DNA of 64,000 nt. Source: an uncultured bacterium (GTDB lineage: Bacteria > Verrucomicrobiota > Kiritimatiellia > RFP12 > UBA1067). How positions within the stretch are numbered: the first letter of the stretch is position 1; the number at the start of each line of letters is the position of its first letter. A program made the position numbers and the translations under genes. The notes under the pieces are model-generated. The model was not told where the DNA came from. It made no database searches and worked only from the letters and a program-made list of their open reading frames with translations. Positions 37,701 through 56,396 of the stretch are shown here, one piece after another. Location: assembly GCA_902799385.1 (NCBI GenBank), contig CADCAK010000004.1, forward strand, positions 7,448-71,447. Reading direction: 5' to 3'.

Positions 37701-40491
37701 CGACCAGGTGAAGTGGGAGCCGGACGGCGTGGAGTCGCCCGAGGACTTCGAGGCGATAGAGCTGCTGCCGCGCAATGCCATCGTCAACGGGGAGGAGGCT
37801 GGCAATGCGTTCTTTGCCGCCACGGGAACGCGCGTGGACCGGGGTCATGCAGCCCCGCGCGTCTGCTGCACGGCCGAGGCCATGCCGCTCGAGGGGATCG
37901 TGTTCGACGGCTGGCGGCTGACGGCGGGCGGGGAGTCCTGTGCCACGAACGGCAACCCGCTTTTCATCGACGGCAGGTACGCATGCTTCACGAACGAGAG
38001 CGTTTCGACCTGCGATGTCCGCGCCGTGTTCAAGTGGATCGAGTACCGCATCCGCTACGATGCAAACGGCGGCCACGGAACGGTTGCGCCCGATTCGTCT
38101 AGCTACTTCTACACCAACGAAGTCGCGCTTGCGTACGCGAGCCCGTCGCCCGGCTACAGCCTCGCCGGCTGGAGCACGAACGCGACCGGAAGGGCCGCGT
38201 TCATGCCGGGGCAGGTCGTGACGGGGGCCGACCTCGGCGCGACGGCGGACGGGGTCGTGACGCTCTACGCGGAATGGACGCAGAACGTGTACACCGTCAC
38301 GTTCCGCTACAGGGACGGCAGCGGCGCACTCGTCGGCGCGGCCCAGTCCGTCCTCGGCACGGAGAGCGCGCTGCCGCCCGATCCGTCCGAGTACGATTCG
38401 TGGGCTGACCACGGGTTCATCGGCTGGGACGTGGACTATTCAAGCGTCGTCGGCGACATGATGGTGACCGCGCAGTACGAGCAATGCGAGGCCTGCACGG
38501 TCAGGTTTGAGCCGGGCGACGGCGCAGTCGGCTCGATGGGGGACATGGACTGCCTCGTCGGCGTCGAGCAGTGCCTTGCGTCCAACGCCTTCACGAAGGT
38601 CGGCTACGTCTTTGACGGCTGGGCGGTCGAGCCCAGCGGCGACGTGGCGTATGCCGACGGCGCGTCCGCTAGGTTCAATGCGGACGCCACGCTCTACGCC
38701 GTATGGTCGCCGATCCGGTATTCAATCGCCTTCGACGCGAATGGCGGCGAATGGCAGACCGACCCGTTTGAAGCGGAGTGCGTCTACGACGAACCGGTTT
38801 CGTTGCCGACTGGCATATTTGCCCGCGCCGGCCACGTGATGGCCGGATGGGTCTGCGGCGGGATGAACTACGCCTGCGGCGCGGTCGTGTCAAACCTGGC
38901 GGCGACGGTCGGCGCCGTCGTCGTGATGGCGGCCAGGTGGAGCTCCGTCGCGGATCTGCCCGTTGCGGTGTCCGGCCTTGTCTACGACGGCTCTGCGAAG
39001 ACCGGCGTCGTTGCGAGTGCGGGTTGCCTGCTTGCCGGCCACGTGGCGACGGGCGCCGGTTCGTACACCGCGACGGCGACTCTGGAGGAAGGGCGCGTCT
39101 GGCCCGACGGCACGGCCGGCGCGCGAACGGTAGCGTGGTCGATTGCCAAGGCGACGTACGACATGGGCGGGGTGGCGTTTGCGGACAGGACCTTCGAGGC
39201 CGACGGCACGCCGAAGTCGCTCGCCGTCTCGGGAACGCTTCCTGCCGGAGTGACGGTGTCCTATTCCGGCAACGGCATGACCGAGCCTGGGACATACAGG
39301 GTGACGGCGAGATTCTCGGGCGACGCGGCAAACTACGAGCCGATTCCCGACAAGGAGGCGACGTTGACAATAACCAGGAAGTCCGAGCCCGCTCCGCCCG
39401 ACCCGGGCCCCGATCCCGTCGATCCCGAGCCGGATCCGGAAGGTGTGCCCGAGCTTCATCCGAGCGGCATCGCCGCGCTGGGCGCCTTCACGGCCGAGAA
39501 GGCGGCGACCTACAACGGCTGGCTGAAGGACGGCGACGGGAGGATTGTCGCGCTGTTGATCGTCAAGACCACGGCGGCGAAGGCGGGAAGGGCGACGAAG
39601 TCCACGATTTCCGTGACGCCCGTGGACGGAAAGAAGTACACGAGGAAGACGACGTTCTTTCCCGGTGGGAACCCGACCGACGAATACGGCCTTGTCTACG
39701 GCGCGCGCGGGCTTCTCGGCACGTTCGGCGGCTATTTTGCCGAGGCCGCAGTCGATGTCTACAAGTCCAAGGTCGCCGAGGTGAAGTCGCTTGCCGCGGA
39801 CATTCCCGCTGCGACGCATACCTTCGCCGTGGACACTGGGAACGGGACTGCGGTATTCTCGGCCGTCGTCGCGAACACCGGGAAGACGAAGGTGCAGGGA
39901 TTCCTCGAGGACGGCGCAAGGATATCGGTCTCCGCCACAGGCGCGCTCGGGGAAGGCCACTTTGCCGTTCCGATAGTCTCGCCGAAGGCGGCGGCGAGGT
40001 GCGGCTTTGTCCTCTGGCTGCCGCTTGACGGCGGTTCGCCGACGCTCGCGAACTTCTACGACGCGACCTGGACGGCGTCGTCGTCGGGCGGGTCCTACGC
40101 CATGTCCGACGGCGAGCACATCTTCGACTTCGATGAGCCGGACTTCCGCGACTATCTCGCTTCGGTGGACGGCTTTGACGTAGCGCCGGTCGGCGCGGTT
40201 TTCGCCGTCAGGCTCGGCAAGTGGGACGCCGGCAGGACGGTCGGCCGGCTCAAGGCGGTCGACGGCGTGCCGACGGTCACGGGGACGGCGACCCCTTTGA
40301 ACCTGGGCGCGCTCAAGCTGTCGTACACGGCGAAGTCCGGGCTCGTGAAGGGTTCGTTCAAGCTGTACTACATGGACGGCAGGCGGCTCAAGTACGACAC
40401 CGTGACGGTCACGGGCGTCGTGGTGGACGGCAGGCTCTTCGGAAGCGGTACGATAAAGAAGCTCGGCTCCTTTGCCGTGTCTGCGCAATGA
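34732..40491 (+). CDS. Large secreted protein with many InlB B-repeat (Listeria-Bacteroides repeat) domains, a Pro-rich linker and a basic C-terminal domain
   Basis: Start ATG 34732 ([21 protein letters not shown] signal peptide). Repeated Y.V.FD.NGG...RTGY.F.GW...LYA.W units. MBG-like segment near 39150-39375. Confidence 0.85.
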
Positions 40492-43400
40492 GCGACATCG
40501 TAATAAGGAACGCAAGGGTCCACAACCTGCGCGGGATCGACGTGACGATTCCACGCGATTCGCTGACGGTCGTGACTGGGCTATCGGGCTCCGGCAAGTC
40601 GTCGCTTGCGTTCGACACGCTGTACGCCGAGGGGCAGCGCCGCTACGTCGAGTCGCTTTCGGCCTATGCGCGGCAGTTCCTCGACAGGATGCAGAAGCCC
40701 GATGTCGAGAAGATCGAGGGGCTTTCGCCCGCGATATCAATAGAGCAGCGCACCACGAGCGGCAACCCGCGCTCTATTGTGGCGACCGTCACCGAGATAC
40801 ACGACTACCTTCGAATCCTCTACGGGGCCATTGCGGTTCCACACTGCCCGAAGTGCGGCAGGCCGGTCACGCGCCAGTCGGCCGAGCAGATCGTGGAGGC
40901 GATTCTTGCCGCAGCTTCGCCTGTGGCGGGTGCTTTCGCGGCTTCGCACCCCTCTAGCGACCGCTTGCGCGGCTCGCTTCGCTCGGGGGATACGCTAGTG
41001 CCTTCGCGCGGCAAAGCCGCGCTGGTGCAGAGTGCGGGTAAGCATCAGGCTCCAAGCACCAGGTCGGCGGAGCCGACCGCAGGCACCAGCGCCATAGGCG
41101 CGCAGGCCCTAGTCGAAGGCGCAAGCACCCGCATCATCATCTACGCGCCTTTGGTGAAAGGCAAGAAGGGCCGCCACGAAGAGCCGCTTGCGCTGGCGAA
41201 GCGCAACGGCTTCGCCCGCGTGCGCATCGACGGAACGGTCTATCCCGTGGACGAGCTTCCCGAACTTGACAGGAAGAAGGCCCACGACATCGACGTCGTG
41301 ATCGACCGCCTCGTCGTCCCCGCCGAGCCCGACACCGCGTTCAGGACGCGCCTCACCGACTCGGTTGAGCTCGCGCTCAGGACCGGCGGGGGGATAATGG
41401 AAGTGGAGTCGCCGGGCGAGAGCCGCGCGACGTGCGGCGCGACGACATATTCCGAGCTCAACGCCTGCGTCGGATGCGGCATTTCCTTCGAAGAGCTTAA
41501 GCCCCGCTCGTTTTCGTTCAACTCGCCGTTCGGCGCATGTCCCAGGTGCGCGGGGCTCGGGCAGCTCTACTACTTCGACGAAGACCTCGTCGTGCCAGAC
41601 AAGTCGCTTCCGCTCGAGGAGGCGATACATCCTTGGCGGCGCATGGGGCAGATGAACATCCTCTACCACAGGGAGCTACTTGCGCACATCGCGAAGCAGT
41701 ACAAGGTGAAGCTCTCTACGCCCTACGAGAAGCTACCGGCGAAGTTCCGCCACGGGCTCATGCACGGCTTCAAGGACGACCTCGTCCTTCCGTGGCGGCG
41801 CGTGGACCGTCCGTTCGAGGGAGTCCTTGCGTCGCTTCAGCGCCGCTTGGACGAGGCGGAGGACGACGAGATGCGCGCGAAGTTCGAGGCGTACCAGAGT
41901 TTCCGTACCTGTCCCGACTGCGACGGTTCGCGCCTGAGGCCCGAGTCGCGCGCGGCGACCGTCGCGGGGAAGTCTATCGTCGAGGTCATGGCGATGCCCG
42001 TCACCGAGGCATTGGAGTTTTTCAAGGAGTTTGCGGTAGGGGCGTCGCGGCCATCCGCAAAGCTTGCCGGGCTCAAGGACGTAATAGCCGAGATCGTGCG
42101 GCGGCTCCAGTTCCTTCTTGACGTCGGGCTCGACTACTTGACGCTCGACCGCGCAGCGTCCACTCTTTCCGGCGGCGAGATGCAGCGAATCCGCCTCGCT
42201 ACGCAGATCGGCTCTGGGCTCACTGGCGTCCTCTACGTCCTCGACGAGCCGACGATCGGCCTGCACCCGCGCGACAACGAACGGCTCATCTCCACGCTGA
42301 AGGGGCTTCGCGACAGGGGCAACACCGTCGTCGTCGTCGAGCATGACGAAGAGATGATGAGAAACGCCGACTACATCGTCGACCTCGGCCCCGGCGCGGG
42401 ACGCGAGGGCGGCAAGGTAATGTACCAGGGCGACTTCGGGGGGCTGCTCAAGTCGAAGTCGCTGACGGCAGATTATCTGACGGGGAGAAAGAGGATGGTG
42501 CCTTCGCCTTCGGCGGGTGCTTCCGCGGCTTCGCATCCCTCTAGCGACCGCTTGCGCGGCTCGCTTCGCTCGGGGGATATGCTAGTGCCTTCGCGCGAAA
42601 AAGCCGCGCTGGTGCAGGGTGCGGATAAGCACCAGGCACCAAGCACCAAGCACCAGCGAAGCGCAAGCACCAGGTTGGCGGAGCCGACCGCAGGCACCCA
42701 TTACCTAACCATCTCCGGCTGTACCGAGCACAACCTCAAGAATGTCACGGTGCGCTTCCCCGTCGGCGCGTTCACGGTCGTGACAGGCGTGTCGGGTTCG
42801 GGCAAGTCCACGCTCGTCGACGAGACGCTCAAGCGGGCACTTTTCCAGAAGTTCTACCGCACGAAGGACGCCCCCGGCAAGTTCAGGAAGCTCGCCGGCT
42901 GGGAGAACTTCGACAAGATCGTCGAGATCGACCAGTCGCCCATCGGCCGCACGCCGCGCTCTAACCCGGCGACGTACGTCGGCTTCTTTTCCGAGATACG
43001 CGAGCTTTTCGCGAAGACCGAGTCGGCGCGCGCGCGCGGCTACACGGCGGGGCGCTTCTCCTTCAACGTGAAGGGCGGGCGCTGCGAGACGTGCGGTGGC
43101 GACGGATTGCAGAAACTCGAGATGAGCTTTCTTCCCGACGTCTATGTCACGTGTGAGCAGTGCGGCGGCAAGCGCTTCAACGCCGAGACTCTCGAAGTCA
43201 CCTACGGCGGCAGGAACATCGCCGATGTCCTCGAGATGACCGTTGCCGAGGCGTGCGAGTTCTTCGCGAAGGTGCCGTCGCTCGCCCGCAGGCTCAAGAC
43301 GCTTGCCGATGTCGGGCTCGGCTACATCGCGCTCGGCCAGTCGGCGACGACACTCTCCGGCGGCGAGGCGCAGCGCATCAAGCTCGCCACCGAGCTTTCC

Positions 43401-43676
43401 CGCCGCTCGACGGGGCGCACACTCTATCTCCTCGACGAGCCGACGACGGGGCTGCACTTCGACGACGTCTCGAAGCTAATGAAGATACTCCTGGGGCTGC
43501 GCGATCAGGGGAACACGATCATCGTCATCGAGCACAACGTGGACGTGATCCGCAGCGCCGACTGGGTGGTGGACCTGGGTCCGGGCGGCGGCGACGCCGG
43601 CGGCACGCTCGTCTGCGAGGGGCCGGTCGACGCCGTCAGGGCGTGCAAGGCGTCTTTTACCGGTCGCTTCCTCTGA
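40488..43676 (+). CDS. uvrA: Excinuclease ABC subunit A with two in-frame repeat insertions
   Basis: Motifs [19 protein letters not shown], zinc fingers, [19 protein letters not shown] and LDEPTTGLH. Start taken at ATG 40488. Confidence 0.97.
40914..41129 (+). mobile_element. Intragenic coding palindromic element, copy 3 (in uvrA)
   Basis: Shared core translating [40 protein letters not shown]. The tail ends in AAGCACC. Confidence 0.85.
42497..42698 (+). mobile_element. Intragenic coding palindromic element, copy 4 (in the uvrA inter-NBD linker)
   Basis: Bounded by GGTGCCT...AGGCACC. Core translates [42 protein letters not shown]. Confidence 0.85.
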
Positions 43677-43695
43677 CATTTGCATGCAATAGTCT

Positions 43696-43724
43696 TTGAT
43701 TCCCGCGTTGAAAAATGGTATTAT
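43696..43724 (+). promoter_or_regulatory. Putative sigma70 promoter for the protease gene (and possibly recA)
   Basis: TTGATT (43696-701), 17 nt spacer, TATTAT (43719-24) with an extended TG. Confidence 0.55.
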
Positions 43725-43751
43725 ATCTCTCCACGATACAGGGAAGGGCTC

Positions 43752-46700
43752 ATGAAGGCAAATAAAATACTTTTGCTCTCATCGTTGGCGTTCGCGGTCA
43801 ATGCGTTCGCCGCGCCGGTTTCTGTCGACACGGCGCGGCTTGCCGCAGGCTCGTGGGCTCTCTCCGACGCCGCGCTCGGCGTACCGCACGGCTCGTCTGC
43901 CGGCGAAGCGGTCGCGTACGGCGTGGACGGCACGAACGGCTTTTACGCCGTGTCCCTCGAAGGCGGCGGCACGCTGTTCCTCGCGGCGGACGACGAGATA
44001 GACCCGATCCTCGCCTTCACCGCATCCTCGTCGCCGAACCTTTCGGCCGGCAGCCCGCTCCTGAACCTTCTCGTCCGCGACGTCCGCGCGCGGCGCGGCA
44101 GGCTCGCGGCGGAGGCTGAAGACGAGGCCCAGCAGGCGTCGTCCGCGACGCCGTCCGGGCGGCGGCTCTCCGCGACGGCAGGTCCCGCGTCCGCCGCCCC
44201 AGCCGACGTACTGACGGCTTCCGCCGCGAGGGCGCGGAAGCTCTGGTCGGCGTTCGCCCCGTCGCAGGCGTCCGACGGCCGCGTCAGGCTTGGCGCGACG
44301 GCGACCCCGCGTTCCACGCTTGCAAGCTACGAAATCCGCGTTGCGCCAATCCTCACGACGCAGTGGAGTCAGACGGACGCTGGCGGCAAGATATGCTACA
44401 ACTACTACACGCCCTACAACTATCCGTGCGGGTGCGTCGCCACCGCCGCAGGGCAGATCCTCAACAGGTGGAAGTACCCGACCGGGGATCTTGAGCAGTT
44501 CTCCAACGCCTGCACGGTCAACGGCGGGACCATGACCCTCACCTCCACCGGTTCGCCGCGCGTCTACGACTGGGACGCCATGGTTGACACTCCGTCTGGG
44601 GCGACGAGCGAGGCGAGCCGCGCGGCGATAGGCGCGCTCCTTTCCGACCTCGGCATCTCGTTTGGCGCGGGCTATACGTACGAGGGCACGAGCGCCTACG
44701 AGTTCAACGTGCCCGAGCCGCTTCACTCCAAGTTCAACTACGCGAGCGCATACACCTACACGGTCAACGGCACCGGCAGCAAGAAGTCGGCTCTCCATAC
44801 CGCCCCCGTTCGCCAGAGGGCCATCCTCGCCAACCTCGACGCCAAGCGTCCCGTCGAGCTCTACATCCTGTCCGATGCCGTCGGCGGGCACGCCGTCGTG
44901 GCGGACGGCTACGGGTTCGTGACGATCGGCGGCGAAGACGTCGAGTTCACCCACATCAACATGGGCTGGGCGGGGACGGACGACATGTGGTACAACCTTC
45001 CCGTCATAGTCACGCAGGAATCCGGCTCGACTGCCGGCCAGACCGGCGGCTATTCGTTCGACTACCTCATGGGCGTGACGTTCAACATCCATCCGACGGA
45101 GACGGGTGACATCCTGTCGGGGCGCGTCACCGACGACGGCGACCCCGTTGAGGGCGCGACGGTCACGGTGTACGCGTCCGGCGGGTTTGTGGAGCCGCTG
45201 GCGACGACGACGACGGACGAGTACGGCATCTACAGCTTCACGCTTGAGGGCGGCGTCACGTACAACGTCATGGCGGTATCGGCGGACGGCAAGAAGAGCG
45301 GCACGCTGGAGGACGCATTGCTCCTGAAGACTACCGTTTCCGACACCACGACCTACACGACGCACAGCGACTCCGACATCGGCAACTCGTGGGGCAACGA
45401 CATTGACATCGTCGTGCCCCACGTAAGGATCGTCGGCGGTAACGTCTACCCGAACCTGAACTCGGCCCTTGCGGACGCGGCGACAATGGACGATCCCATC
45501 GTCGAGATATTCGGCCCCACCCGCCTCAAGCAGCCCGTCACGATAACGACGAACATCACCATCCGGACCGTTCCCGACTTCAGCGCGGACTTCGAGGACG
45601 TCCTTCCCACGCTTGACGAATGCGAGGTGTTCGTTCCCGATACGGCGGTCACGTCCGACGGCTGGGCGCTGCAGATCGCCGACGCCTCCCGCGTGGCGTT
45701 CTCCAACATCGTGGTCCGCGTCGCGTCGGGGCGCAGGCCGCATCTCGACGTCATTGCCGCCGGCAAGGCCGCGTTTTCCGGCCGCATCGACATCGGCAGG
45801 GTCGTGACGCGCACCGGCGATGCCATCGTGCTGGCCGGCACGCTGGAGTCCACTGGCGCCGGCCTGCTCGTCGCCTGCGACTGCGGCGGCGGAATTGGCA
45901 GCCCGTTCGGCATCTACGAGTGCGCGGACGATGTCGCCGGCGCGTATGCCGGGCTCATAGGCAATGCGCTCGACGGCACCCTTTCAGGGCAGGTCGGCCC
46001 CGACGGTCTCCTCGTGTGGGACGACATTCCAATCGACCCTTCCGTCGCCGTGGCCAAGGCGACCGACCCCCTCGGCGCGACGAGGTACTACCGCTCGATG
46101 GATCTTCTCTTCGCGGACTGCGCTAGCGGCGCGGACGTCGTGGTGCTGCGGGACTGCCCGTTTGAGATGTTCACCAACACGGTCACGATCGCTAGGGACG
46201 TGTCCATCGCGGGCGAGGGCACGGTTGCCCCGGTCGTGTCGATGTCCATGGGCGCGTCGTTCTCCGTAAAGGACGGGGCGCGGCTCGCCCTCGAGAACGT
46301 CGCGCTCACGCGCGACACCGACGGGAGCGTCAGGTCTTCCAAGAAAAGCCTGATTGCCGTTGTGGGCGGCGGGAGCCTCGAGCTCGGCCCGGGCGCGACG
46401 ATATACGGTCTCCAGCTTTCCGGAACCGCTAGCGCGGTCGCCGTCTCGTCCGGCACCGTCGCGATGCGCGAGGGCTCCTCCATCTCGAACTGCGTCGCGA
46501 CGAGCAGCGCTACGCAGTGCGGCGCCGCGATTTCGCTCCAGTCCGCCGAAAGCTCGCTCGAAATGACAGGCGGCCTTGTGAGCGGCTGCATCGCCGGGAA
46601 GGAGGCCGGCGGGATATCAGCCGGCTCGAAGGCGTCGATATGCTTGTCCGGCACGGCGTCGGTCTGCGGCAACAAGCTTTATACAGACAGGAACAAGGAA

Positions 46701-48206
46701 GGCGCCTATCGGGATGTCTACTGCAACAACAACAACCAGCTGTCGGTGACGGGCCGCCTCGAGGGCAAGGTCGGCGTGTACTGCTATGCCGGGCACAAGG
46801 TCGGCAATCCGTTCGCCGTTGCGGGCGAATCGCTTTCCAACGCGGACGCCGAGTCTTCTGTCGCGGCTTTCTTCAACAATGCAGGCACGGCGACGTCCCC
46901 GGCGCTCTCCGGCGACAGGAGGTCGTTCATGTGGGTCGCGACACCGGTGGGGCAGGTCCCCGAAACGGACGCGGACGTCAGCGTCGAGGTTGACGGCGTC
47001 ATTGGCCACTACGCGAAGATAGAGGACGCGTTCGCGGTCGCCACGAACGGTACGGCGACGATTACGCTGCATAGGGACATCTCGCTCACCAACAGCCTCG
47101 CGGCCAAGACCGACATCGTATTCGACGGCTGCGGGCACACCGTGCTGCGCGAGGGCGACTTCACGATAGCCGTGACGAACGTCTCACTCTCGCTTGCGAA
47201 CGTAGTGCTAGACGGCGGCACGGGAACCGTCAGGTTCGTCGACGTCGCCTCGACGGACGCTAGCAGGACGGCGTCCCTGACGCTCGATTCCGGAGCCGTC
47301 GTGAGGGACGTCTATGGCGAAGACCAGTCGATGGTGGCGGCGATAGTCGTGTGGCACGGAACCTTCACGATCCTTCCCGGCGCGGAGATTGTGCGCTGCG
47401 GGAATCTCTACGACCGCTATGACGGCGGCCCCCTCGCGGCAGGTGCGGTCGTGGTTGACGGCGAAAGGGGCGTCGCGCGGCTCTACGGCGGCACCATTCA
47501 CCAATGCGCCGGCTCCGGCGCAGGCGGCGTGTACGTTGGCAACGGGGCGTCTGCATTCGTCATGGATGGCGTGTCGGTACGCGACAACGAGTCACTTTTC
47601 GGCGAGCCATGCAACCTTGTCGTGCAGGACCTGAGCAGCCTCGTGCTTGAGGGCGAGTTCACGGGGGCCATCGGCTATACCGAGGGCGTCGCTGGCGACA
47701 CGAGCGTCTTCGGGACGGTCGATGCCGACGTCTTCGCGTCCACCTCGGCGAGCAACCTCGCCGCAAGCGCGCGCCGCTTCCGCCATGACGTGACGGAGGC
47801 GAAGGGCCTGGTCGCCACCAACGCGACGGAGGCGCTGCTCGTCTGGAGTTCCGCCGTCGGCGCCTCTACCGCGTTCACCAACGTCGTGGAAGGCGTGACG
47901 AACGTTTACGGCGTGGTGAGGATCGCCGGCGACGAGCCCGAGACCGTGGTGTGCGAGCCGTTTGCGTTTGCCTCGATAGAGGAGGTCTCGCCGGGCAGGT
48001 GGAGGCTCGTGCTCAAGCCTGGCACGAGGCATTGCACATATACGCTCAAGCGCTCCGATGACCTCGAACACTGGTCGAACGTCGGCAAGCCGAAGACGCT
48101 TGGGGCCGGGGACATCTCAGGCGCGGAACTCGAGTTCTTCTTCGAGGTGGACGACGCGGCCGCCGGGAGGTTCTGGAAGGTGGAAGGCTTCGACGGGACA
48201 AAATGA
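43752..48206 (+). CDS. Secreted C10 family (streptopain/SpeB-like) cysteine protease with a long C-terminal beta-rich passenger
   Basis: Signal peptide and propeptide. Catalytic motifs TQWSQ, GCVATAAGQI, GGHAVVADGY and HINMGW. Followed by a carboxypeptidase-regulatory-like domain and beta-helix-like repeats. Confidence 0.88.
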   Translation: MKANKILLLSSLAFAVNAFAAPVSVDTARLAAGSWALSDAALGVPHGSSAGEAVAYGVDGTNGFYAVSLEGGGTLFLAADDEIDPILAFTASSSPNLSAGSPLLNLLVRDVRARRGRLAAEAEDEAQQASSATPSGRRLSATAGPASAAPADVLTASAARARKLWSAFAPSQASDGRVRLGATATPRSTLASYEIRVAPILTTQWSQTDAGGKICYNYYTPYNYPCGCVATAAGQILNRWKYPTGDLEQFSNACTVNGGTMTLTSTGSPRVYDWDAMVDTPSGATSEASRAAIGALLSDLGISFGAGYTYEGTSAYEFNVPEPLHSKFNYASAYTYTVNGTGSKKSALHTAPVRQRAILANLDAKRPVELYILSDAVGGHAVVADGYGFVTIGGEDVEFTHINMGWAGTDDMWYNLPVIVTQESGSTAGQTGGYSFDYLMGVTFNIHPTETGDILSGRVTDDGDPVEGATVTVYASGGFVEPLATTTTDEYGIYSFTLEGGVTYNVMAVSADGKKSGTLEDALLLKTTVSDTTTYTTHSDSDIGNSWGNDIDIVVPHVRIVGGNVYPNLNSALADAATMDDPIVEIFGPTRLKQPVTITTNITIRTVPDFSADFEDVLPTLDECEVFVPDTAVTSDGWALQIADASRVAFSNIVVRVASGRRPHLDVIAAGKAAFSGRIDIGRVVTRTGDAIVLAGTLESTGAGLLVACDCGGGIGSPFGIYECADDVAGAYAGLIGNALDGTLSGQVGPDGLLVWDDIPIDPSVAVAKATDPLGATRYYRSMDLLFADCASGADVVVLRDCPFEMFTNTVTIARDVSIAGEGTVAPVVSMSMGASFSVKDGARLALENVALTRDTDGSVRSSKKSLIAVVGGGSLELGPGATIYGLQLSGTASAVAVSSGTVAMREGSSISNCVATSSATQCGAAISLQSAESSLEMTGGLVSGCIAGKEAGGISAGSKASICLSGTASVCGNKLYTDRNKEGAYRDVYCNNNNQLSVTGRLEGKVGVYCYAGHKVGNPFAVAGESLSNADAESSVAAFFNNAGTATSPALSGDRRSFMWVATPVGQVPETDADVSVEVDGVIGHYAKIEDAFAVATNGTATITLHRDISLTNSLAAKTDIVFDGCGHTVLREGDFTIAVTNVSLSLANVVLDGGTGTVRFVDVASTDASRTASLTLDSGAVVRDVYGEDQSMVAAIVVWHGTFTILPGAEIVRCGNLYDRYDGGPLAAGAVVVDGERGVARLYGGTIHQCAGSGAGGVYVGNGASAFVMDGVSVRDNESLFGEPCNLVVQDLSSLVLEGEFTGAIGYTEGVAGDTSVFGTVDADVFASTSASNLAASARRFRHDVTEAKGLVATNATEALLVWSSAVGASTAFTNVVEGVTNVYGVVRIAGDEPETVVCEPFAFASIEEVSPGRWRLVLKPGTRHCTYTLKRSDDLEHWSNVGKPKTLGAGDISGAELEFFFEVDDAAAGRFWKVEGFDGTK

Positions 48207-48242: not shown

Positions 48243-49274
48243 ATGGCAACTAAAGATACAACAAAGAAGGCCATCGGCAATACCGCGCTCGACGCGGTGA
48301 TGAGCCAGATACGCAAGGAGTTCGGCGAGATGTCGATCATGCGCCTCGGCGACCAGGAGGTAGCCGACATACCGGTGATCTCCACCGGCGCGCTTTCGCT
48401 CGACATGGCGCTCGGTGTAGGCGGGCTTCCGCGCGGCAGGATAGTCGAATGCTACGGCCAGGAGTCGTCCGGCAAGACGACGCTCGCGCTGCATGTCGTC
48501 GCGAACGCCCAGAAGGCGGGCGGAGTCGCGGCGTTCATCGACGCCGAGCACGCTCTCGACCCCGGCTACGCGAAGAAGATAGGCGTCGATCTCGACAACC
48601 TCGTGGTCTCCCAGCCGAACAGCGGCGAGGAGGCACTGACAATCTGCGAGCAGCTTGCGAAGTCGGGTGCGCTCGACGTCATCGTGGTCGACTCCGTCGC
48701 AGCGCTCGTGCCGCAGGCCGAGATCGACGGCAACATGGGCGACAGCCACATGGGCCTGCAGGCGCGCCTCATGTCGCAGGCGATGCGCAAGCTCACGGCG
48801 GTCGTCGCGCAGACGAAGACGCTCATCATCTTCACGAACCAGGTGCGCGAGAAGATCGGCGTCATGTTCGGCAACCCCGAGACGACGCCGGGCGGCAAGG
48901 CGCTCAAGTTCTACGCGAGTTGCCGGCTTCAGGTCCAGAGGATAGGCGCGATAAAGAACCCCGCCGGACAGGTCGTCGGTAACAGGACGCGCGTGAAGGT
49001 CGTCAAGAACAAGGTCGCCCCGCCTTTCACGGAGGCCGAGTTCGACATCCTCTACACGTGCGGGATTTCCTACGAGGGGTCGGTCCTCGACGCGGCGCTT
49101 GCGCGCGGCGTCGTCGAGAAGCGCGGCAGCTGGCTTAGCTTCGGCGACGCGCAACTCGCGCAGGGGGCGCTTGCGACGATCGAGTACCTTAAGGCCAATC
49201 CAGACGTGACGGCGAAGATTGTCGAGCTCGTCAAGTCCACGCCGGTCAACCCGGCGCTGGGTAAAAGAAAGTAG
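48243..49274 (+). CDS. recA: Recombinase A
   Basis: Motifs [39 protein letters not shown] and ETTPGG.ALKFY. Confidence 0.98.
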
Positions 49275-49338
49275 ATTTTTGCGAGTCCCGGAGCGAGTGA
49301 GCGAAGCGGAACGAACGAAGGGACGAGCCTCGACTAAA

Positions 49339-49432
<94 letters not shown>

Positions 49433-49532
49433 GACGAGTCCCGGTGGCATATGAATCCCCCGTCGCGCTCCGGGCGCCGTGCATGCCCGTTGCATGTAGC
49501 GTGCGCAGGGTATGTGCAGTTTTCGCGGGGAA

Positions 49533-49626
49533 TGGCGGAGAGAGAGGGATTCGAACCCTCGGTACGGAAATTAACCCGTACGACGATTTAGCAAACCGTT
49601 GCCTTCAGCCACTCGGCCATCTCTCC
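49533..49626 (-). tRNA. tRNA-Ser(GCT)
   Basis: Reverse complement reads GGAGAGATGGCCGAGTGG...ACGGT-TTGCTAA-ATCGT, long variable arm, GGTTCGAATCCCTCTCTCTCCGCCA. Confidence 0.95.
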
Positions 49627-49653
49627 AAATCGAATCGTATGTTGCGTATTGTA

Positions 49654-50817
49654 TCAAATGCGCTGCTCGCCGTCAATGAAGACGGCAGACGGTTTCCAGC
49701 TGCGCGGATTGATCACGACGAGGTCGGCGGTGTAGCCCTTTTCGACCTTGCCGAGCGACTTGCCCCAGCCGAGCTCAATCGCCTGGTTCCACGATGTCGT
49801 GCGCACGAGGTCCTTGAGGGGGATGCCCGTGACGTCGTGGACGTTCTTGAGGCCCATGCCCATCCAGAGCGTAGACCCGGCGAGGTTGCCGCCCTCGACG
49901 AGACGCGCCTCGCCGCCCTTGAGGAGAACCTTGAGCCCGCCCATCTCGAAAGCGTACCCGTCCTTGCAGTGCGAGCAGCGGAGCGAGTCGGTGATCATCT
50001 GGATGTGCTCGAGGCTGCGGCGCGTGAAGATGAGGTTCAGCATGTCGGGGCAGAGGTGGATCTTGTCGCAGATGACCTCGGTGTTGAGGTCCTCGACGAG
50101 GAAGCCCGCGCCGACCATGCCGATCTCGCGGTGGTGGAGCGGCGTCATCTGGTTGCAGAAGTGCGTCATGTGCCTGAGCCCGTTCCTGTAGGCGGGGACG
50201 AGGTCCCTGAACTTCGCGCCCGTGTGGCCGCAGCTCGGCACGACGCCAATCTTGAAGCACTCCTTCGCGAACTTCGCGCCGCCCTCGGTCTCGACCGCGT
50301 AGGAGATGAGCTTCACGGGATAGACCTTCGCAATCTCCTTCACTTCCCTGATTGCGGGCTTGCGGACGAACTTCGGGTTCTGCGCGCCGCAGCACTTGAC
50401 GTTGATGAACGGGCCCTCGAGGTGGATGCCGGGGACCTTCGCGTATGGCATGCCCGCGTCGGCGTAGGCCCTGGCGTTCTTCGCGGCGGCGATCAGCTCG
50501 TCGTGCGAGACGGTGAGCGTCGTCGGCAGCACGGTCGTCACGCCCTCCGCGAGCTTCGCCTTCGCGAACTCGAAGATCGCCTTGGGGTCGGCGTCGCAGA
50601 AGTCGTAGCCGAGCGCGCCGTGCGTGTGGACGTCGATGAAGCCGGGCATCACGTATTGGCCGCGCACGTCGACGACGATCGTGTTCGCGTCGGCCTTGAC
50701 GGACTTGGAGCCCTTGACGACCTGCTTGATCTTCTTGCCCTCGACGACTATCGTGGCTTTCTCGATGTCGATGCCGGGGGAAACGACGTGTGCGTTCGTG
50801 ATGACGGTCTTCTTCAT
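49654..50817 (-). CDS. nagA: N-acetylglucosamine-6-phosphate deacetylase
   Basis: Motifs PGFIDVHTHG, GVTT.LPT, GIHLEGPFI, GHT, THFCNQM, D.IH, TDS and LAGS. AGGAG RBS. Confidence 0.92.
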   Translation of the reverse strand: MKKTVITNAHVVSPGIDIEKATIVVEGKKIKQVVKGSKSVKADANTIVVDVRGQYVMPGFIDVHTHGALGYDFCDADPKAIFEFAKAKLAEGVTTVLPTTLTVSHDELIAAAKNARAYADAGMPYAKVPGIHLEGPFINVKCCGAQNPKFVRKPAIREVKEIAKVYPVKLISYAVETEGGAKFAKECFKIGVVPSCGHTGAKFRDLVPAYRNGLRHMTHFCNQMTPLHHREIGMVGAGFLVEDLNTEVICDKIHLCPDMLNLIFTRRSLEHIQMITDSLRCSHCKDGYAFEMGGLKVLLKGGEARLVEGGNLAGSTLWMGMGLKNVHDVTGIPLKDLVRTTSWNQAIELGWGKSLGKVEKGYTADLVVINPRSWKPSAVFIDGEQRI

Positions 50818-50840
50818 TGCCTAATCTCCTTGTTGGCAAG

Positions 50841-50869
50841 ATTATCCTAAAAATCGTCGGCGAAGTCAA
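50841..50869 (-). promoter_or_regulatory. Putative sigma70 promoter for nagA
   Basis: On the minus strand: TTGACT, 17 nt spacer, GATAAT. Confidence 0.5.
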
Positions 50870-50890: not shown

Positions 50891-50899
50891 TGGTATAAT
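50891..50899 (+). promoter_or_regulatory. Extended -10 element (TGGTATAAT) 7 nt before the GTG start of the KS-like gene
   Basis: TATAAT at 50894-99, GTG at 50907, no Shine-Dalgarno sequence. Confidence 0.55.
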
Positions 50900-50906: not shown

Positions 50907-52310
50907 GTGGAATCTTCAGTAGCCATAGTCGGCATGTCGTGCCGATTCGCCGGGTGCCCTACGCCGTCGGCTTTCTGGAACGCCGTGATGGCGCGCCGCT
51001 GCTGCCTTGCGCCGCTCGGCCCGGACGCCGAGATCCCGTTCGGGCAGCGCAACGTCTTCGCGAGGCCCTATCCCGTGAGGATGGGCCAGCTCGGCCCTCT
51101 CTTCGCCTGCGTGCCGTCGATGCAGAACTTCCCGCGCCAGGTGAACGCGGGCGAGAATCAGGACCTGTACTTCGCGACGCAGCTCGCGTTCGACGCCCTC
51201 GCCGACGCGGGGATGCGCCCCCATTCGCCGGTCCCCGTGAAGGGTAGCGTGCGCGTCGGCTACGCGCCGCCGTTCAACGCGTCCACGGTCAACTGGCTCC
51301 AACATACGGCGTTCCTCGACCAGACGATGGACATCATACGGCGGTTCTTCCCGCATGCCCCCGAGGAGTCGCTCGAAAGCGTTACGGAGAAGCTCGTGGA
51401 GTCCCTTCCCTCGCCGAACGCCTCGTCGTTCCTGCTCGGCACCGGCTACCGCTTCGCGTCGTGGATCGCTCGCGAATGCTCGTTCGCGGGCGTGGCGACT
51501 ACGATGGACGCGGGGCTCCTCACCGGCGCCGCGACGTTGCAGGACGCAGTCGCCGACCTCGCCTCTGGGCAGGCCGACGTCGCGCTTGTCGGCTCGCTTA
51601 CGCCGCCGATCCCGCGCGCCTATCTCGAAGGCCTCTCCGGCGAGGTGCCGTTTTCGGTGCGCACGGAGCTGCATCCCTTTGCACAGGACCAGGACGGCAC
51701 GATACCCGGCGAGGGCGGCGCGTTCTTTGTCCTCAAGCGCCGCGCCGACGCGCTTCGCGACCACGACCGCGTCTACGCGCTCGTGCGCTCCATTGCGATA
51801 GGCCACAACCCGGAGGACGACCCGTCCGCCATCCTGGCGCAGGCGACCGAGGGCAGCGGCATTCCCGTCAAGACGATTGGCCTCGTCGAGGCCGACGGCT
51901 CCGGCATAGCGGTCGCCGAGCGCCGCGAGATCGATGCCGTCCACCGGCTCTGGGGCGAGCACCGCCCCGGCGGGCCGCTCGTCGCGATCGGCTCGGTAAA
52001 GGGCAACATAGGCCACACTCTCCGCGCGGCGATGGCGGCGGGCGTCGTTAAGGCAGCGCTCGCGCTCTTCCGCCGCGTCCTTCCGCCGCAGGTGCCGCAG
52101 GAGCATCCGCACGATTCGCTCGCCAACCTCGCGTCGAGCGCATATCTCCTAGACGAGGCGCGTCCGTGGATAACGGGCGATAGCTCCAGTCCGCGCCGCG
52201 CGGCGGTGCTTGGCGCTAACTTCGACGCGATCGACCCGGTGGGCGGTGCGGCGAAGGGCGGCCGCGCGGCGGCGGTGGTGCTCGAGGAGGAACCGGAGGA
52301 CAGGCCGTGA
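50907..52310 (+). CDS. Type I PKS-like ketosynthase domain protein, catalytically degenerate
   Basis: Motifs VAIVGMSCRF.G, DALADAG, DGT.PGEG, LKR..DA.RD.DRVYA and GSVKGNIGH. The DxAC Cys site reads DAGL and HGTG reads DGSG. Confidence 0.8.
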   Translation: MESSVAIVGMSCRFAGCPTPSAFWNAVMARRCCLAPLGPDAEIPFGQRNVFARPYPVRMGQLGPLFACVPSMQNFPRQVNAGENQDLYFATQLAFDALADAGMRPHSPVPVKGSVRVGYAPPFNASTVNWLQHTAFLDQTMDIIRRFFPHAPEESLESVTEKLVESLPSPNASSFLLGTGYRFASWIARECSFAGVATTMDAGLLTGAATLQDAVADLASGQADVALVGSLTPPIPRAYLEGLSGEVPFSVRTELHPFAQDQDGTIPGEGGAFFVLKRRADALRDHDRVYALVRSIAIGHNPEDDPSAILAQATEGSGIPVKTIGLVEADGSGIAVAERREIDAVHRLWGEHRPGGPLVAIGSVKGNIGHTLRAAMAAGVVKAALALFRRVLPPQVPQEHPHDSLANLASSAYLLDEARPWITGDSSSPRRAAVLGANFDAIDPVGGAAKGGRAAAVVLEEEPEDRP

Positions 52311-55300
52311 CAGCGGACTTCGGCGAGACAGGGAGAAGCGAGCTCGTCCTCGTGTCGGCGGCGGACGACGCCTCGCTCATCGGCGAGATATCGCGTATCG
52401 TGGCGTTTCTCGACCGCACCCCCGACGCGCCCCTTGCCGACGTCGCCTACACGTGTTCGCTTGCCGGCGGCCCTGCCGTCCTCGCGCTCGTGGTCTCAAG
52501 CGTCGGCGAGCTGAGGACCCGCCTCTTCTCGGCGCGTTCGCGCATTGCGGCGGGCGCGGCGCGGATACGCGACAAGAGCGGCACGTACTACTTCAGGGAG
52601 CATCTCGTCGGCGCCGGCGCCGGCAAGCTCGCGTTCGTCTACCCCGGCGTGATGGGCTACTACCCCGACATGCTGCGCGACATAGCGATACTCCACCCCG
52701 AATGCCGCTCGGCGTTCGACGAGCTCGAGGAGGCGCTTTCCGACGACCCCGACTTCACGCCGTCGAGCTTTATCTTCCCCCCGGCACCGTACTACCGCCA
52801 CGACGCCGACATCTTCAGCTCCGGCGCGTACGCGCAGGCGTTCGTCGCGTCGTTCGCCGGCTGCGTCGCGATGACGCGGCTTATGGGAGCCCTCGGCGTC
52901 AGCCCCGACGGCGTCGTCGGCTGCGTCGGAGGCGACCTTGCGGCGGTGATGCGTTCTGGCGCGGCCGGCGTCGACAACCCGAGGCCGGTCAGGGTCCGCG
53001 CCATACGCGAGATATACAGGATAGTGGACAAGGCGGTGGACCACGCGGGGTTGCCGAAGACGGCGATGATCTCGGTACTGCTCAAGCACGAGGGCGAGGC
53101 GGACGAGGTCGTGAAGGGCTTCCCGCCCGACAAGGTGGCGCTCGCGCTCGACTTCTCGCCGCGCCAGCGCACGTACGCCGTCGCGTCCGACTACGAGGAG
53201 GCTGCGCTTAAGGCGTTCGCCGACGCCGGCGTTAGGACGATGAAGCTCGCGTTGGAACGGCCTTTCAACACGTCGAAGTGCAAGCCGATAGTTGCAGGCG
53301 TCAAGAAGTTTGCGGGCGACTGGATGAAGCACGAGGCGGTTTGCGACGTCTATTCGTGCGCACAGGCCGACAGGCTCCCGCGAAAGGCGCGCCCCTCGCG
53401 CAACGACACCGCCGAGCGCTGGGCGCAGCCCGTCAGGTTCCGGGAGACGATACTGAAGATGCACGCCGACGGCTACCGCATCTTCCTCGAAGTTGGCCCG
53501 CGGGGGCTGATGACGGCGGCGGTCGCCGAGACGCTGAAGGATTCCGACTTCGCCGCGATAGCGCTCAACTCGATACACCGTCGCGGCGTTTTGCAGGCAT
53601 GCCACGCGATAGGCCAGCTTGCCGCGCACGGCGCGAAGCTCGACTTCTCCAAGGCGTTCGCGCGCCGCCGCGTCAGGCGTCTCGACTTCGACGCGGCCCT
53701 GCCGCTTGAGGTCCGCCGCGACGCGGAGATGCGCCTTTCGAGCGCCTTCCCCCGGCTTACGCTGCTCGGCGACGAGACGTTTCTCCATGGCGCGGACTTC
53801 CTTTCCGAGCCGGCGGGGCGCGGCGCCAAGGCCGCAAGGCGCGCCGCCGCAGTCGCCGCCAAGGCCCGTCGCCAGCGCCAGTTCGACTTCGGCGCGTCGA
53901 ACCCGCTTGTCTCCGACGCCGACATCCTTGCGCAGAGCCCCGGCGTGTCCGTCGAGGTCTTGAAGACGTTCCGCACCGCCGATGCGCCGTTCCTCGCCGA
54001 CTTCGCCCTCGGCGCGAGCCAGCTTTCTTATTCCGACCCGAACCTCAAGGGGCTCGTCACGCTGTCCATCCCGGTTGCCGCCGAGATAATGGCCGAAGTC
54101 GCGCGGATGATCGTCCCGAACAGGACGCTCGTATCCATAGAGAACATGGCATGCAGGCGCATGGTCGCCTTTGCCGGCGGCGAGTTGAAGCTCTTCGTCA
54201 AGGCCGAGCGGGTGGCGTCGGGCGACGCGAAGCTCGCGGCGGTCAGGGTGCAGATACGTGACGACTCGCCGAACTCCGCGTACACGTGGCCGGTTATGGA
54301 CGGCGTGTTCGTCATGGCCGACGGACACGCGCCGACGGTCCCCGTGTCGCCGCCGACGATGTTCAAGCCGCGTAGCGTCCACTGGTCTGGCCGCGACATA
54401 TATCCATCGCGCCTGTGCTTCGGGCGGCGGCTGAGGGGCGTGAGGTTCGTCGAGGCGTGGAGCGAGTCGGGGCTCGACTACGAGGTCGAGGTCCCGTCGC
54501 TCTCCGACGCCGTAGTGTTCACGCGCTTTCCGCTGTGGATCGTCAACCCGCTGCTTCTCGGCGCGGTGACGAGCGGCTTTGCGCTCTGGCGCAGCCACGA
54601 GAAGTTCACCGGCGCGTTCTCGTTCCCGTTCCGCCTGAGGAAGCTCGAGCTGCTCGGCTCGCAGCCGCACGAGGGCTCGCGGCTGAAGTGCTACCTGCGG
54701 CTCACGGGCGTTACGCCGAAGTCGCATGTCTGCGATATAACGGTGACGGACGGCAACGGGGCGGCGGCCATGTCGATCTCCGGCTGGGAGGAGCTGACCG
54801 AGCGCGTCCCCGCCGAATACCGCGAGCTCGTCCTCCAGCCCGCCAACGCCTTCCTGACGCGCCGCGTCTCGGCCGACATGCTCGGCGACCCGGCGACCGA
54901 CGCCGCCAGCGCGTTCATCACCGACATCCCGTACCACATCTTCGAGCGCAACGAGGAGCTGTGGCTCAAGACGCTTTCGCACGTCGTCCTCGGCGCGCAG
55001 GAGCGCGACGAGTTCCGCAGCATGCCCGGCTCGGCTTCGCGCCGCACGGAGTGGCTGTTCGGCAGGGTGGCCGCGAAGGAGGCCGTCAGGCGCTATCTCA
55101 AGGACTTCCACCAGGCGAGGTGGAGCGACGCGGACATACAGATATGGCGCGACGACTCCGGCAAGCCCCACGCGCTGGGCCAGTGGGGCGACTACCTCTC
55201 GGAGAGGATCGACATAGCTATCGCGCACACGGCGCAGTTCGTAGTCGCGCTCGCGGCGGCAAACGCGCGCGTCGGCGTCGACGTCGAGTCAGCGACGCGC

Positions 55301-55633
55301 GACCTTTCCGAGGAGTTTACCGCAGGCGTGTTCGTCCCCGAGGAGCTTGAGCTTGCGGCGAACGCGGCGAACGCCTCGCAGGCCATCATCAGGTTCTGGT
55401 GCGCGAAGGAGGCCGTCTCCAAGGCCCTCGGCACGGGGATACGCTACAGTCCGCGCGAGATGCGCGTCGCCGACTACCAGCCGGACGCAGGCAGGATCGT
55501 CGTCCGGCTCGAAGGCGCGTGGCTCGACGCGTTCAAGAAATTCCGCGGCCGCGACATCGAGGTCGTCTCGCGCGTGATGAGGGAGCACGCGCTTGCATTC
55601 TGCTTCATTCCCATGATGTTGTTCGATGAATAG
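52307..55633 (+). CDS. Fusion of a degenerate acyltransferase, a degenerate PKS dehydratase and a C-terminal Sfp-type 4'-phosphopantetheinyl transferase
   Basis: AT motifs KLAFVYPG and PVRF..T...M..DG..IFLEVGP, with GHSxG replaced by GCVGG. DH-like hot-dog region lacking its His and Asp. PPTase motifs GR.AAKEA, GKP, AHT, VGVDVE and FWCAKEAVSKALGTG. Confidence 0.8.
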   Translation: MTADFGETGRSELVLVSAADDASLIGEISRIVAFLDRTPDAPLADVAYTCSLAGGPAVLALVVSSVGELRTRLFSARSRIAAGAARIRDKSGTYYFREHLVGAGAGKLAFVYPGVMGYYPDMLRDIAILHPECRSAFDELEEALSDDPDFTPSSFIFPPAPYYRHDADIFSSGAYAQAFVASFAGCVAMTRLMGALGVSPDGVVGCVGGDLAAVMRSGAAGVDNPRPVRVRAIREIYRIVDKAVDHAGLPKTAMISVLLKHEGEADEVVKGFPPDKVALALDFSPRQRTYAVASDYEEAALKAFADAGVRTMKLALERPFNTSKCKPIVAGVKKFAGDWMKHEAVCDVYSCAQADRLPRKARPSRNDTAERWAQPVRFRETILKMHADGYRIFLEVGPRGLMTAAVAETLKDSDFAAIALNSIHRRGVLQACHAIGQLAAHGAKLDFSKAFARRRVRRLDFDAALPLEVRRDAEMRLSSAFPRLTLLGDETFLHGADFLSEPAGRGAKAARRAAAVAAKARRQRQFDFGASNPLVSDADILAQSPGVSVEVLKTFRTADAPFLADFALGASQLSYSDPNLKGLVTLSIPVAAEIMAEVARMIVPNRTLVSIENMACRRMVAFAGGELKLFVKAERVASGDAKLAAVRVQIRDDSPNSAYTWPVMDGVFVMADGHAPTVPVSPPTMFKPRSVHWSGRDIYPSRLCFGRRLRGVRFVEAWSESGLDYEVEVPSLSDAVVFTRFPLWIVNPLLLGAVTSGFALWRSHEKFTGAFSFPFRLRKLELLGSQPHEGSRLKCYLRLTGVTPKSHVCDITVTDGNGAAAMSISGWEELTERVPAEYRELVLQPANAFLTRRVSADMLGDPATDAASAFITDIPYHIFERNEELWLKTLSHVVLGAQERDEFRSMPGSASRRTEWLFGRVAAKEAVRRYLKDFHQARWSDADIQIWRDDSGKPHALGQWGDYLSERIDIAIAHTAQFVVALAAANARVGVDVESATRDLSEEFTAGVFVPEELELAANAANASQAIIRFWCAKEAVSKALGTGIRYSPREMRVADYQPDAGRIVVRLEGAWLDAFKKFRGRDIEVVSRVMREHALAFCFIPMMLFDE

Positions 55634-56396
55634 CATGGATCCATTTGGTGAGCTCAGCCCGGGCCGCTCGCTGCCGCCGGGGCTGAAGCAGAGGTTCCCA
55701 GACCGCGTGCTCGTGATGACGACAGACCGCTGCTTCGGCGTCTGCCCGCACTGCACGCGCAAGTTCATCCTCGGCAGGTCTCCCGTAGTCGATTCGCCGG
55801 AGAGGCTTTCCGCCTGCGTCGGATACGTGAAGCGCCATCCGAAGGTGAGGGATGTGCTCCTTTCCGGCGGCGACGTCCTTGCGCTTCCCGACCCGGCGGT
55901 CGCGCGGTTCGTCGAGGCGTTTGCGGAGCTCGGCCAGATAGAGGTCGTCAGGATATGCACGCGTGCGCCCGTTTCCAATCCGTCCCGTATAACGGCGCGG
56001 CTTGCGCGGCTCCTGGCCCGCGTCGGGCGCGGCAAGGTCTGGGCGAACGTCCACGTCAACACGGCGGGCGAGGCGAGGATTGCGCGCGAGGCTGCGGCGC
56101 GGCTTGTCGGCTGCGGCATCCCCGTCTCGTCGCAGACGGTGCTACTCAGGGGCGTGAACGACACGCCGCGCAAGATGCTTGCGCTTCTCCGCGCGCTTTC
56201 CGCCGCGAGGATAAGGCCCTACTACGTCTTCCAGTGCGATCCCGTGGAGGGGCTTCAGGAGCGCTTTGGCGTTCCGCTCGCCCGCGCCAGGGAGATCGAG
56301 GCCTACTGCGCCGAGCGAATAGGCGGTCTCGCGCTTCCGCGCTTCGTAGCCGACCTTCCCGGCGCAAGGCGCAAGACGCCGCTTGACCTTCTCTGA
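55626..56396 (+). CDS. Minimal KamA/EpmB-family radical SAM protein (lysine 2,3-aminomutase-like)
   Basis: DRVL...DRCFGVCPHCTRK (CxxxCxxC), VLLSGGD, QTVLLRGVND, PYYVFQCD and LP.FV.D.PG...K. Confidence 0.8.
   Translation: MNSMDPFGELSPGRSLPPGLKQRFPDRVLVMTTDRCFGVCPHCTRKFILGRSPVVDSPERLSACVGYVKRHPKVRDVLLSGGDVLALPDPAVARFVEAFAELGQIEVVRICTRAPVSNPSRITARLARLLARVGRGKVWANVHVNTAGEARIAREAAARLVGCGIPVSSQTVLLRGVNDTPRKMLALLRALSAARIRPYYVFQCDPVEGLQERFGVPLARAREIEAYCAERIGGLALPRFVADLPGARRKTPLDLL

Follow-up and report, generated by a model that had tools for sequence, protein, structure and literature searches.

The 64,000-nt stretch of DNA analysed here, referred to as the window, comes from an uncultured bacterium of the class Kiritimatiellia (assembly GCA_902799385.1, contig CADCAK010000004.1, positions 7,448 to 71,447 of the forward strand). 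Two plus-strand open reading frames (ORFs) within it, at 50907-52310 and 52307-55633, encode ketosynthase (KS), acyltransferase (AT) and probable dehydratase (DH) folds of the polyketide synthase (PKS) type, all without their catalytic residues, and a C-terminal phosphopantetheinyl transferase (PPTase) domain whose motifs are intact. This PPTase is the only one in the genome that matches either PF01648 or the acpS profile. The best reading, which we regard as likely to be correct, is that the pair is a fossil Pfa-like synthase kept as the chassis of the cell's housekeeping holo-acyl carrier protein (ACP) synthase.

All the genomes compared are metagenome-assembled genomes (MAGs); that of the window (G000) is 2.7 Mb in size and 77.5% complete. 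Its one match to PF01648, a profile that found matches in 10/10 bacterial control genomes, lies inside the second ORF. The TIGR00516 acpS profile matched only the two halves of the fused PPTase in each of the five genomes scanned (G000, G023, G026, G028 and G101), four of which are 96-99% complete. A preliminary description of the locus, made from the sequence and its ORF translations, had proposed that the protein might serve its PPTase and had left the presence of another acpS or sfp gene to be checked. No second gene was found by PF01648 or TIGR00516 in G000, and the proposal emerges stronger than it was first put, the domain being the sole PPTase both here and in related genomes.

Among 31 genomes of the genus and order, 30 have one PF01648 match and one (G030) has two, and 26 of the matches lie in frames of at least 855 aa. 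The PPTase frames of G009 and G019 are broken by contig ends, the G019 gene being split over two contigs. Only a short-frame PPTase is present in G021, G024 and G027. The second protein was found in 0/3 of these, and no dead KS was found in them either, the only matches being FabF-like and scoring 25-42 bits, compared with 215-245 bits in carriers. Since these three genomes have a short PPTase only and lack both genes of the pair, the pair and a standalone PPTase are nearly mutually exclusive; since both genes are absent from the same three genomes, they come and go together.

A wider set of 120 genomes of the phylum, each at least 90% complete, was searched with PF01648. Each of the 13 that belong to the same family or order has one match only, in a frame of 1092-1568 aa, and 25 of the 26 from the other orders of the class have only shorter frames (137-668 aa). 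The other one, G125, has both a 309-aa and a 1527-aa frame, ie a standalone PPTase together with a live version of the fused protein. The remaining 81 genomes have mostly AcpS-sized frames and a few longer ones (928 aa in G034, 908 aa in G072). Long open frames of 1484-1568 aa were considered as KS fusions and rejected, being stop-free overlaps in GC-rich DNA instead.

The potential clients of the PPTase are encoded elsewhere in the genome: FabD, FabF and an 88-aa AcpP with the DSL motif, besides one to three further small carrier proteins. Because FabD, FabF and a DSL-motif AcpP are encoded, the cells need a PPTase. Paired small KS genes near two small carrier-protein genes were seen in two relatives (G101:C16:41153-43984 and G028:C84:13249-23214); these loci resemble a type II aryl-polyene-like cluster, and their carrier proteins would also depend on the fused PPTase.

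The PPTase domain occupies residues 876-1108 of the second protein (54932-55633, including the stop codon). Pfam ACPS (PF01648) matches residues 988-1097 with 64 bits, AcpS structures match the first half (residues 887-983), and TIGR00516 matches both halves; because it consists of two AcpS-like halves, the domain is of the Sfp type. Its motifs are intact, as the preliminary description had maintained: GKP (952-954), GVDVE (D992, E994) and WCAKEAVSKALG (E1035, K1039), the third of which reads WCAKEAVSKALGTG in the motif listing beside the other two. GKP, D992, E994, W1031, K1034, E1035 and K1039 are unchanged in 18/18 sequences of the clade described below, in which H974 is also invariant. They correspond to the GKP, (V/I)G(V/I)D-x-E and W-x-x-KEA-x-x-K motifs, which are concerned with Mg2+ and coenzyme A (CoA) and with catalysis.

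The catalytic positions of the other domains were placed by phmmer alignment to solved PKS KS domains and by MAFFT alignment with 137 representatives of at least 1000 aa. The first ORF (50907-52310) encodes a protein of the thiolase-fold KS family, which scores 76.7 bits against ketoacyl-synt (PF00109) and 68.7 bits against Ketoacyl-synt_C (PF02801; Pfam cut-off 20.8), matches PKS and PfaC KS domains in the PDB and ends with the LEEEPE motif that closes type I KS domains. Its nucleophile motif, normally DTACSS, reads DAGLLT, with L234 in place of Cys (codon 51516-51518), and EAHGTG reads EADGSG, with D360 in place of the first His (codon 51894-51896); these two residues are numbered from 50817, and the interface residues given below from 50907. 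The second His (H400) and K395 are retained and KGNIGH is intact, leaving one member of the Cys-His-His triad.

The second protein opens with a KS-AT linker (residues 1-100, 52307-52606; RhiE-like_linker and CurL-like_PKS_C in Pfam, predicted local distance difference test score (pLDDT) above 90), followed by the AT fold (residues 101-460, 52607-53686). The latter scores 37.1 bits against Acyl_transf_1 (PF00698; Pfam cut-off 32.7), and Foldseek gives a target-normalised template modelling score of about 0.8 against isolated PKS AT domains. Neither the Ser nor the His of an acyltransferase is present: GHSxG reads GCVGG (Ser to V207, His to C206), and the live consensus YHTP reads FNTS (His to N321). 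Only 10 of the 137 aligned representatives lack the AT Ser, and all 10 belong to the dead clade. The probable DH fold (residues 546-875, 53942-54931) scores 23.0 bits against PS-DH (PF14765), slightly below the Pfam cut-off of 23.7, relatives scoring 23-66 bits; about 850-990 columns of the second-protein model align by Foldseek to AT-DH-containing chains of PKS and fatty acid synthase (FAS). Here FLxDHxLG reads FLADFALG (His to F566) and LLDAAGQ reads LLGAVTS (Asp to G752), so that the His of HxxxGxxxxP and the Asp of DxxxQ are both missing. The live consensus motifs are unambiguous in the MAFFT alignment, and the window deviates at each AT and DH motif.

These placements bear out what the preliminary description had read from the sequence. 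It had reported two coupled ORFs without frameshifts, a KS with DAGLLT and EADGSG in which only the GNIGH His is left, GCVGG and PFNT in the AT, and FLADFALG and LLG in the DH; both ORFs are confirmed, with a GTGA overlap, and on proper alignment the catalytic Cys of the KS, Ser of the AT and His of the DH are absent. Its account of the ACP needs amendment. Between AT and DH lies a variable linker (residues 461-545, 53687-53941), and the second protein has no PP-binding (PF00550) match in Pfam, ie no recognisable carrier domain. In the AlphaFold2 model (90-row alignment, pLDDT 89) residues 465-511 are disordered, and a single helix at 506-528, the basic Ala/Arg helix noted earlier, sits where ACP-bearing relatives carry their ACP. 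The helix is confined to the window's own family-level relatives and the region varies in length and charge across the clade; it was rejected as an ACP substitute, being conserved only among those relatives. The ACP is thus missing as first stated. Its absence is nevertheless separate from the decay, since the nearest live relatives are ACP-less too.

Selection on the pair was estimated as the ratio of nonsynonymous to synonymous substitution rates (dN/dS; pairwise Nei-Gojobori, custom script) between the window and seven genus-level loci, at a dS of about 0.55-0.7. The values were 0.06-0.12 for the KS, 0.07-0.11 for the AT, 0.08-0.14 for the DH and 0.08-0.09 for the PPTase domain, with 0.12-0.19 for a KamA-like neighbour. 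The dead domains are as constrained as the live PPTase domain, and every domain is under purifying selection. A word-index search returned 614 proteins; the best 120 of the 614 are 66-91% identical to the second protein and almost all 1098-1118 aa long. Full-length orthologues, some of them only about 30% identical, occur across many genomes and contigs, and a KS-like gene stands directly upstream in 13 public loci. The KS gene of G023, about 440 kb away from its partner, remains intact, with Ala in place of Cys; the dead KS stays with the second protein even when the two are unlinked.

Conservation is not evenly spread. Across 18 clade sequences, invariant residues make up 18% of the PPTase, 8% of the KS and 2-6% of the linker, AT, middle and DH regions, and deep in the clade the dead domains retain mainly structural residues of the Gly, Pro and Trp type. 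The mean pairwise identity in the dead clade (29 sequences) is 0.50 for the PPTase and 0.37 for the AT, compared with 0.34-0.37 and 0.42-0.48 in live sequences, so that the PPTase/AT ratio is 1.36 in the dead clade and 0.76-0.79 among the live forms. In the dead clade it is the PPTase domain, and no longer the AT, that is most strongly conserved. Loss of catalytic residues is mosaic: the DH His is absent in all 30 clade rows, whereas the KS Cys has been replaced, depending on the lineage, by L, M, A, V, F, S, D or E. Such a pattern is expected when catalysis, and not the fold, is released from selection. Against the seven genus-level loci dN/dS is well below 1 in the dead domains (0.06-0.14), and across the clade the replacing residues differ between lineages. 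The preliminary description had favoured repurposing over decay, and the low dN/dS, the abundant orthologues of about 1100 aa and an old, monophyletic dead clade agree with it. Standalone PPTases derived from this clade were also sought; the best 120 of 175 short hits lie nearly all on contigs of about 1-6 kb and vary in length, and because they look like contig-end fragments the search neither shows nor excludes shedding of the other domains.

An exhaustive phmmer search found 7653 representatives at E ≤0.001 and 759 at E ≤1e-30. When 27 relatives were scanned with Pfam, AT was found in 27/27, ACPS in all but one and a ketoreductase (KR) domain in 0/27; those of about 1550-1990 aa also have a high-scoring KS and often an ACP. 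Source names in the family are generic and indicate Poribacteria, Deltaproteobacteria, Acidobacteria, Dehalococcoidia, Phycisphaerales and others. The live KS-AT-(ACP)-DH-PPTase family around P0150-P0273 is very large, extending across many uncultured phyla under generic names only. The best NCBIfam match of its KS-AT part is PfaA (TIGR02813), at 774-787 bits for live members, under the cut-off of 1010. In a maximum-likelihood tree of 155 rows (quick method, midpoint rooting) all sequences without the DH His form one clade of 30 rows (Shimodaira-Hasegawa-like approximate likelihood ratio support 100, stem 0.4), which includes all 18 sequences contributed by the order to which the window belongs. 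The forms among which it is nested are split, have no ACP, retain their catalytic residues and are about 1040-1165 aa long; nesting here refers to a supported split and not to a rooted analysis, the rooting being at midpoint. The pair descends from this large, uncharacterised family of live Pfa-like synthases.

The live form of G125, from another order of the class, has every catalytic residue, and a 1783-aa KS-AT-ACP-KR (PfaA-like) gene lies directly upstream; the locus is a compact Pfa-like synthase. No PfaA-like partner of the KS-AT-ACPn-KR type was found in G000, whose KS matches are FabF and the dead KS only, and G023, G026, G028 and G101, which are near-complete, have no large KS-containing frame, their KS matches lying in frames of 424-684 aa. 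On the question raised earlier of an active pfa-like cluster in the same genome, none was found in G000.

The two proteins are predicted to form a heteromeric complex. Co-folding of the KS with partner residues 1-470 gave a score of 0.82, compared with 0.37 for the best of three controls; at least 86% of contacts are shared between the runs, and the partner pLDDT is at least 85. The mark used is reached by 116/157 solved complexes and 2/215 mismatched pairs, counts which hold only roughly for this case because our own alignments were used. Since KS-AT didomains have been solved, the result may stem from resemblance to known structures rather than from an interaction of this particular copy. 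The predicted interface involves KS residues 413-426 and partner residues 124-163, and includes residues invariant in both proteins (Y413, R419, P420 and W421 in the KS; R134, F137, D138 and F157 in the partner).

Within the limited collection of papers searched, no description was found of a dead PKS carrying the cell's sole PPTase. Pfa-like clusters with a PPTase domain on the pfaC or pfaBC homologue are described for Pseudoalteromonas sp. DS-12 (PMC3098273) and for the Aquimarina/Flavobacterium/Renibacterium-type clusters (PMC13291983), and a KS domain without Cys is described for type B pfaB (PMC3098273). Pfa-type synthases resemble the pair in having KS and AT-DH subunits and a C-terminal PPTase of the PfaE/Sfp type, and the link is strengthened here by PfaA being the best NCBIfam match and by the PfaA-like gene adjoining the live relative in G125. 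They differ in that KS, AT and DH are all dead here, the PfaA-like ACP/KR subunit is gone, and the PPTase would serve primary metabolism as the cell's only one. The preliminary description had named enediyne synthases (PKSE) beside Pfa systems. The Pfa affinity holds; PKSE is the less apt comparison, with KR found in none of the 27 relatives. PKSE (KS-AT-ACP-KR-DH-PPTase) shares with the present pair an iterative type I organisation and a PPTase built in at the C terminus, but it is a single polypeptide, whereas here the genes are split and both ACP and KR are missing. For the live relative P0153, the 60 best matches listed among solved structures include no chain that bears the name of an enediyne synthase.

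In some bacteria a single Sfp-type PPTase replaces AcpS, for example PcpS in Pseudomonas aeruginosa and Sppt in cyanobacteria. There, as here, one Sfp-type enzyme must serve the fatty-acid ACP, no AcpS being encoded. Those enzymes are free-standing and of about 240 aa, whereas this PPTase is the C-terminal fifth of a 1108-aa pseudo-synthase with a second dead subunit. The alpha subunit of fungal type I FAS, which also holds a KS, likewise has a PPTase fused at the C terminus of a megasynthase polypeptide, and PDB 4v58 gives a weak match to residues 975-1082. Unlike the present protein it is catalytically active and its PPTase activates its own ACP, and the homology is limited to the PPTase fold.

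We propose the following course of events. The two genes would be what survives, as PfaB/C-like subunits, of a Pfa-type (polyunsaturated fatty acid synthase-like) secondary-lipid synthase that included its own Sfp-type PPTase. This synthase would have ceased making its product, and lost its PfaA-like KS-AT-ACP-KR partner, in the ancestor of the present Kiritimatiellia clade; the DH His would have disappeared on the stem branch, before a piecemeal loss of the residues of KS and AT. The cell's standalone PPTase would also have been lost, and because of that loss the synthase PPTase would have become the housekeeping holo-ACP synthase, converting apo-AcpP and one to three other small carrier proteins to the holo form. 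Mechanistically, the KS (probably a dimer) would bind the linker/AT part of the second protein, AT and DH would form a rigid body carrying the C-terminal PPTase, and the PPTase would move 4'-phosphopantetheine from CoA, with Mg2+, onto the Ser of the AcpP DSL motif. The dead domains would be required for this, and held by purifying selection, as a structural chassis. Their very low dN/dS argues that they are more than passive baggage, and because KS, AT and DH are natural ACP-binding folds they may act as an ACP-docking platform; alternatively, they may do no more than stabilise the protein and let it dimerise. A stricter version, in which the dead KS, AT and DH of this gut/rumen clade capture apo-ACP and present it to the fused PPTase, or gate the PPTase, as an obligatory substrate-delivery chassis, is offered tentatively, and we are more inclined to doubt it than to rely on it.

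Several points weigh against the proposal. Exclusivity is not absolute, since G030 has a weak second PF01648 match (35.6 bits) besides the fused PPTase, and a very divergent PPTase outside PF01648 may exist, all the genomes being MAGs and G000 incomplete. That the PPTase acts on AcpP is an inference. The dN/dS of the dead domains matches that of the PPTase, which suggests a role beyond holding the fold, and a scaffold is silent on which. If the PPTase alone mattered, loss of the approximately 1350 dead-domain codons would be expected in some lineages, and no clear case was seen among short hits that are mostly contig-end fragments. Finally, the AT Ser and His are kept in G020, G022, G029 and G030 (GHSGG/YHT) and the KS Cys and His in L019 and G025, so residual activities may persist in parts of the clade.

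Of the three alternatives, an independent non-catalytic function is the likeliest, residual or new catalysis comes next, and decay comes last. In the first of these the dead KS, AT and DH would have a job of their own, for example as a sensor or sink for acyl-ACP, malonyl-CoA or CoA, or as an organiser of the type II FAS enzymes, and the PPTase would be one of two selected functions. The equal constraint on dead and live domains fits this, as does the keeping of the unlinked KS in G023, and the KS, AT and DH folds of PKS and FAS natively bind ACP. Yet the dead domains have few invariant residues, mainly structural in type, compared with the PPTase, their catalytic-pocket residues drift freely, and a role tied to the PPTase better fits the absence of both genes from 3/3 order genomes with a standalone PPTase; we consider it unlikely.

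That the assembly is still an enzyme, acting on AcpP-bound substrates by a new reaction or, with non-canonical residues, by condensation, transfer or dehydration, is improbable. It could appeal to the single sites kept in the six genomes and loci named above, with GHSGG/YHT in the AT or Cys-His-His in the KS, and to K395 and H400 in the window. In the window's lineage, however, the three nucleophile/base positions are all hydrophobic or Gly, the replacing residues differ between lineages, the DH His is gone in 30/30 clade rows, and neither G000 nor any of the 4/4 near-complete clade genomes has the ACP, KR or PfaA-like partner. An incipient pseudogene pair drifting neutrally, or a MAG assembly artefact, can be dismissed: decay would indeed begin with loss of all catalytic residues, but frameshifts and stops are absent, dN/dS is about 0.1 (dS about 0.6), and full-length orthologues as little as about 30% identical in many genomes and contigs already refute it.

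The surroundings of the pair are not a biosynthetic cluster. The order of genes is recA, two tRNA-Ser genes, nagA (minus strand), the pair, a KamA-family ORF and EttA. Within the pair, the TGA stop of the KS gene (52308-52310) shares bases with the GTG start of the second ORF at 52307, just 5' of which is a GGAGG-like sequence. The longest KS frame begins at 50817; the GTG at 50907 is favoured as the start, relatives beginning M-x-N/S at the aligned position. A perfect TATAAT at 50894-50899 lies 8 nt upstream of this GTG; if the GTG and not the ATG at 50877 is the start, the transcript would have no leader or a very short one. A 543-aa plus-strand ORF at 49219-50850 was rejected as a gene, its low-complexity translation having no family match; the real features there are the two tRNA-Ser genes and minus-strand nagA. 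The segment with tRNA-Ser(gct) and nagA (49531-50834) is inverted relative to four related loci (L010, L011, L013, L016), where the order is recA, tRNA-Ser(tga), nagA(+), tRNA-Ser(gct)(+) and the KS gene. The sole inverted repeat found there (31 nt, 94%) is formed by the two tRNA genes, whose 3' ends face each other; the inversion, which alters what is upstream of the KS start, could be real or an assembly artefact.

Downstream, a KamA-family radical S-adenosylmethionine ORF of 256 aa (55626-56396, plus strand, identified by family profiles) overlaps the stop of the PPTase gene by 8 nt. It matches positions of about 70-330 of lysine 2,3-aminomutase/EpmB-type models, the usual N-terminal part being missing, and the EttA gene comes next. 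The overlap is found in the window and eight genus-level loci, and L015 and L016 have the gene as well; 18 order- and class-level loci, which extend only about 1.4 kb downstream, did not show it. It was rejected as part of the system, being linked only in the genus and nearest relatives, and is probably a neighbour and not a component. Elsewhere, a giant open frame of at least 6838 aa (1-20517) runs off the 5' end of the window; the only domains recognised in it are bacterial TSP3 repeats and one Laminin_G_3 domain, its last 1826 aa have no family match, and it is probably a huge surface protein. Three consecutive large genes at 34573-48206 encode a 1972-aa protein with nine Listeria-Bacteroides repeats, a UvrA-like protein of 1151 aa and a 1508-aa protein with a Peptidase_C10 (streptopain-like) domain and an Inhibitor_I69-like N-terminus.

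On the favoured reading, ie a fossil synthase retained as the chassis of the housekeeping PPTase, this is a case of entrenchment: a secondary-metabolite synthase has lost its chemistry, and about 1,350 dead-domain codons continue to be strongly constrained by purifying selection because a domain embedded in it became essential. For genome mining it means that type I PKS calls of this kind in Kiritimatiellae do not mark biosynthetic clusters, and for metabolic reconstruction that a missing acpS in these genomes is not a gap. The pair also offers a tractable system for finding what pseudoenzyme domains contribute to a fused active enzyme, and brings into view the live KS-AT-(ACP)-DH-PPTase family, which is large and uncharacterised, the 759 representatives mentioned above each standing for a cluster of sequences.

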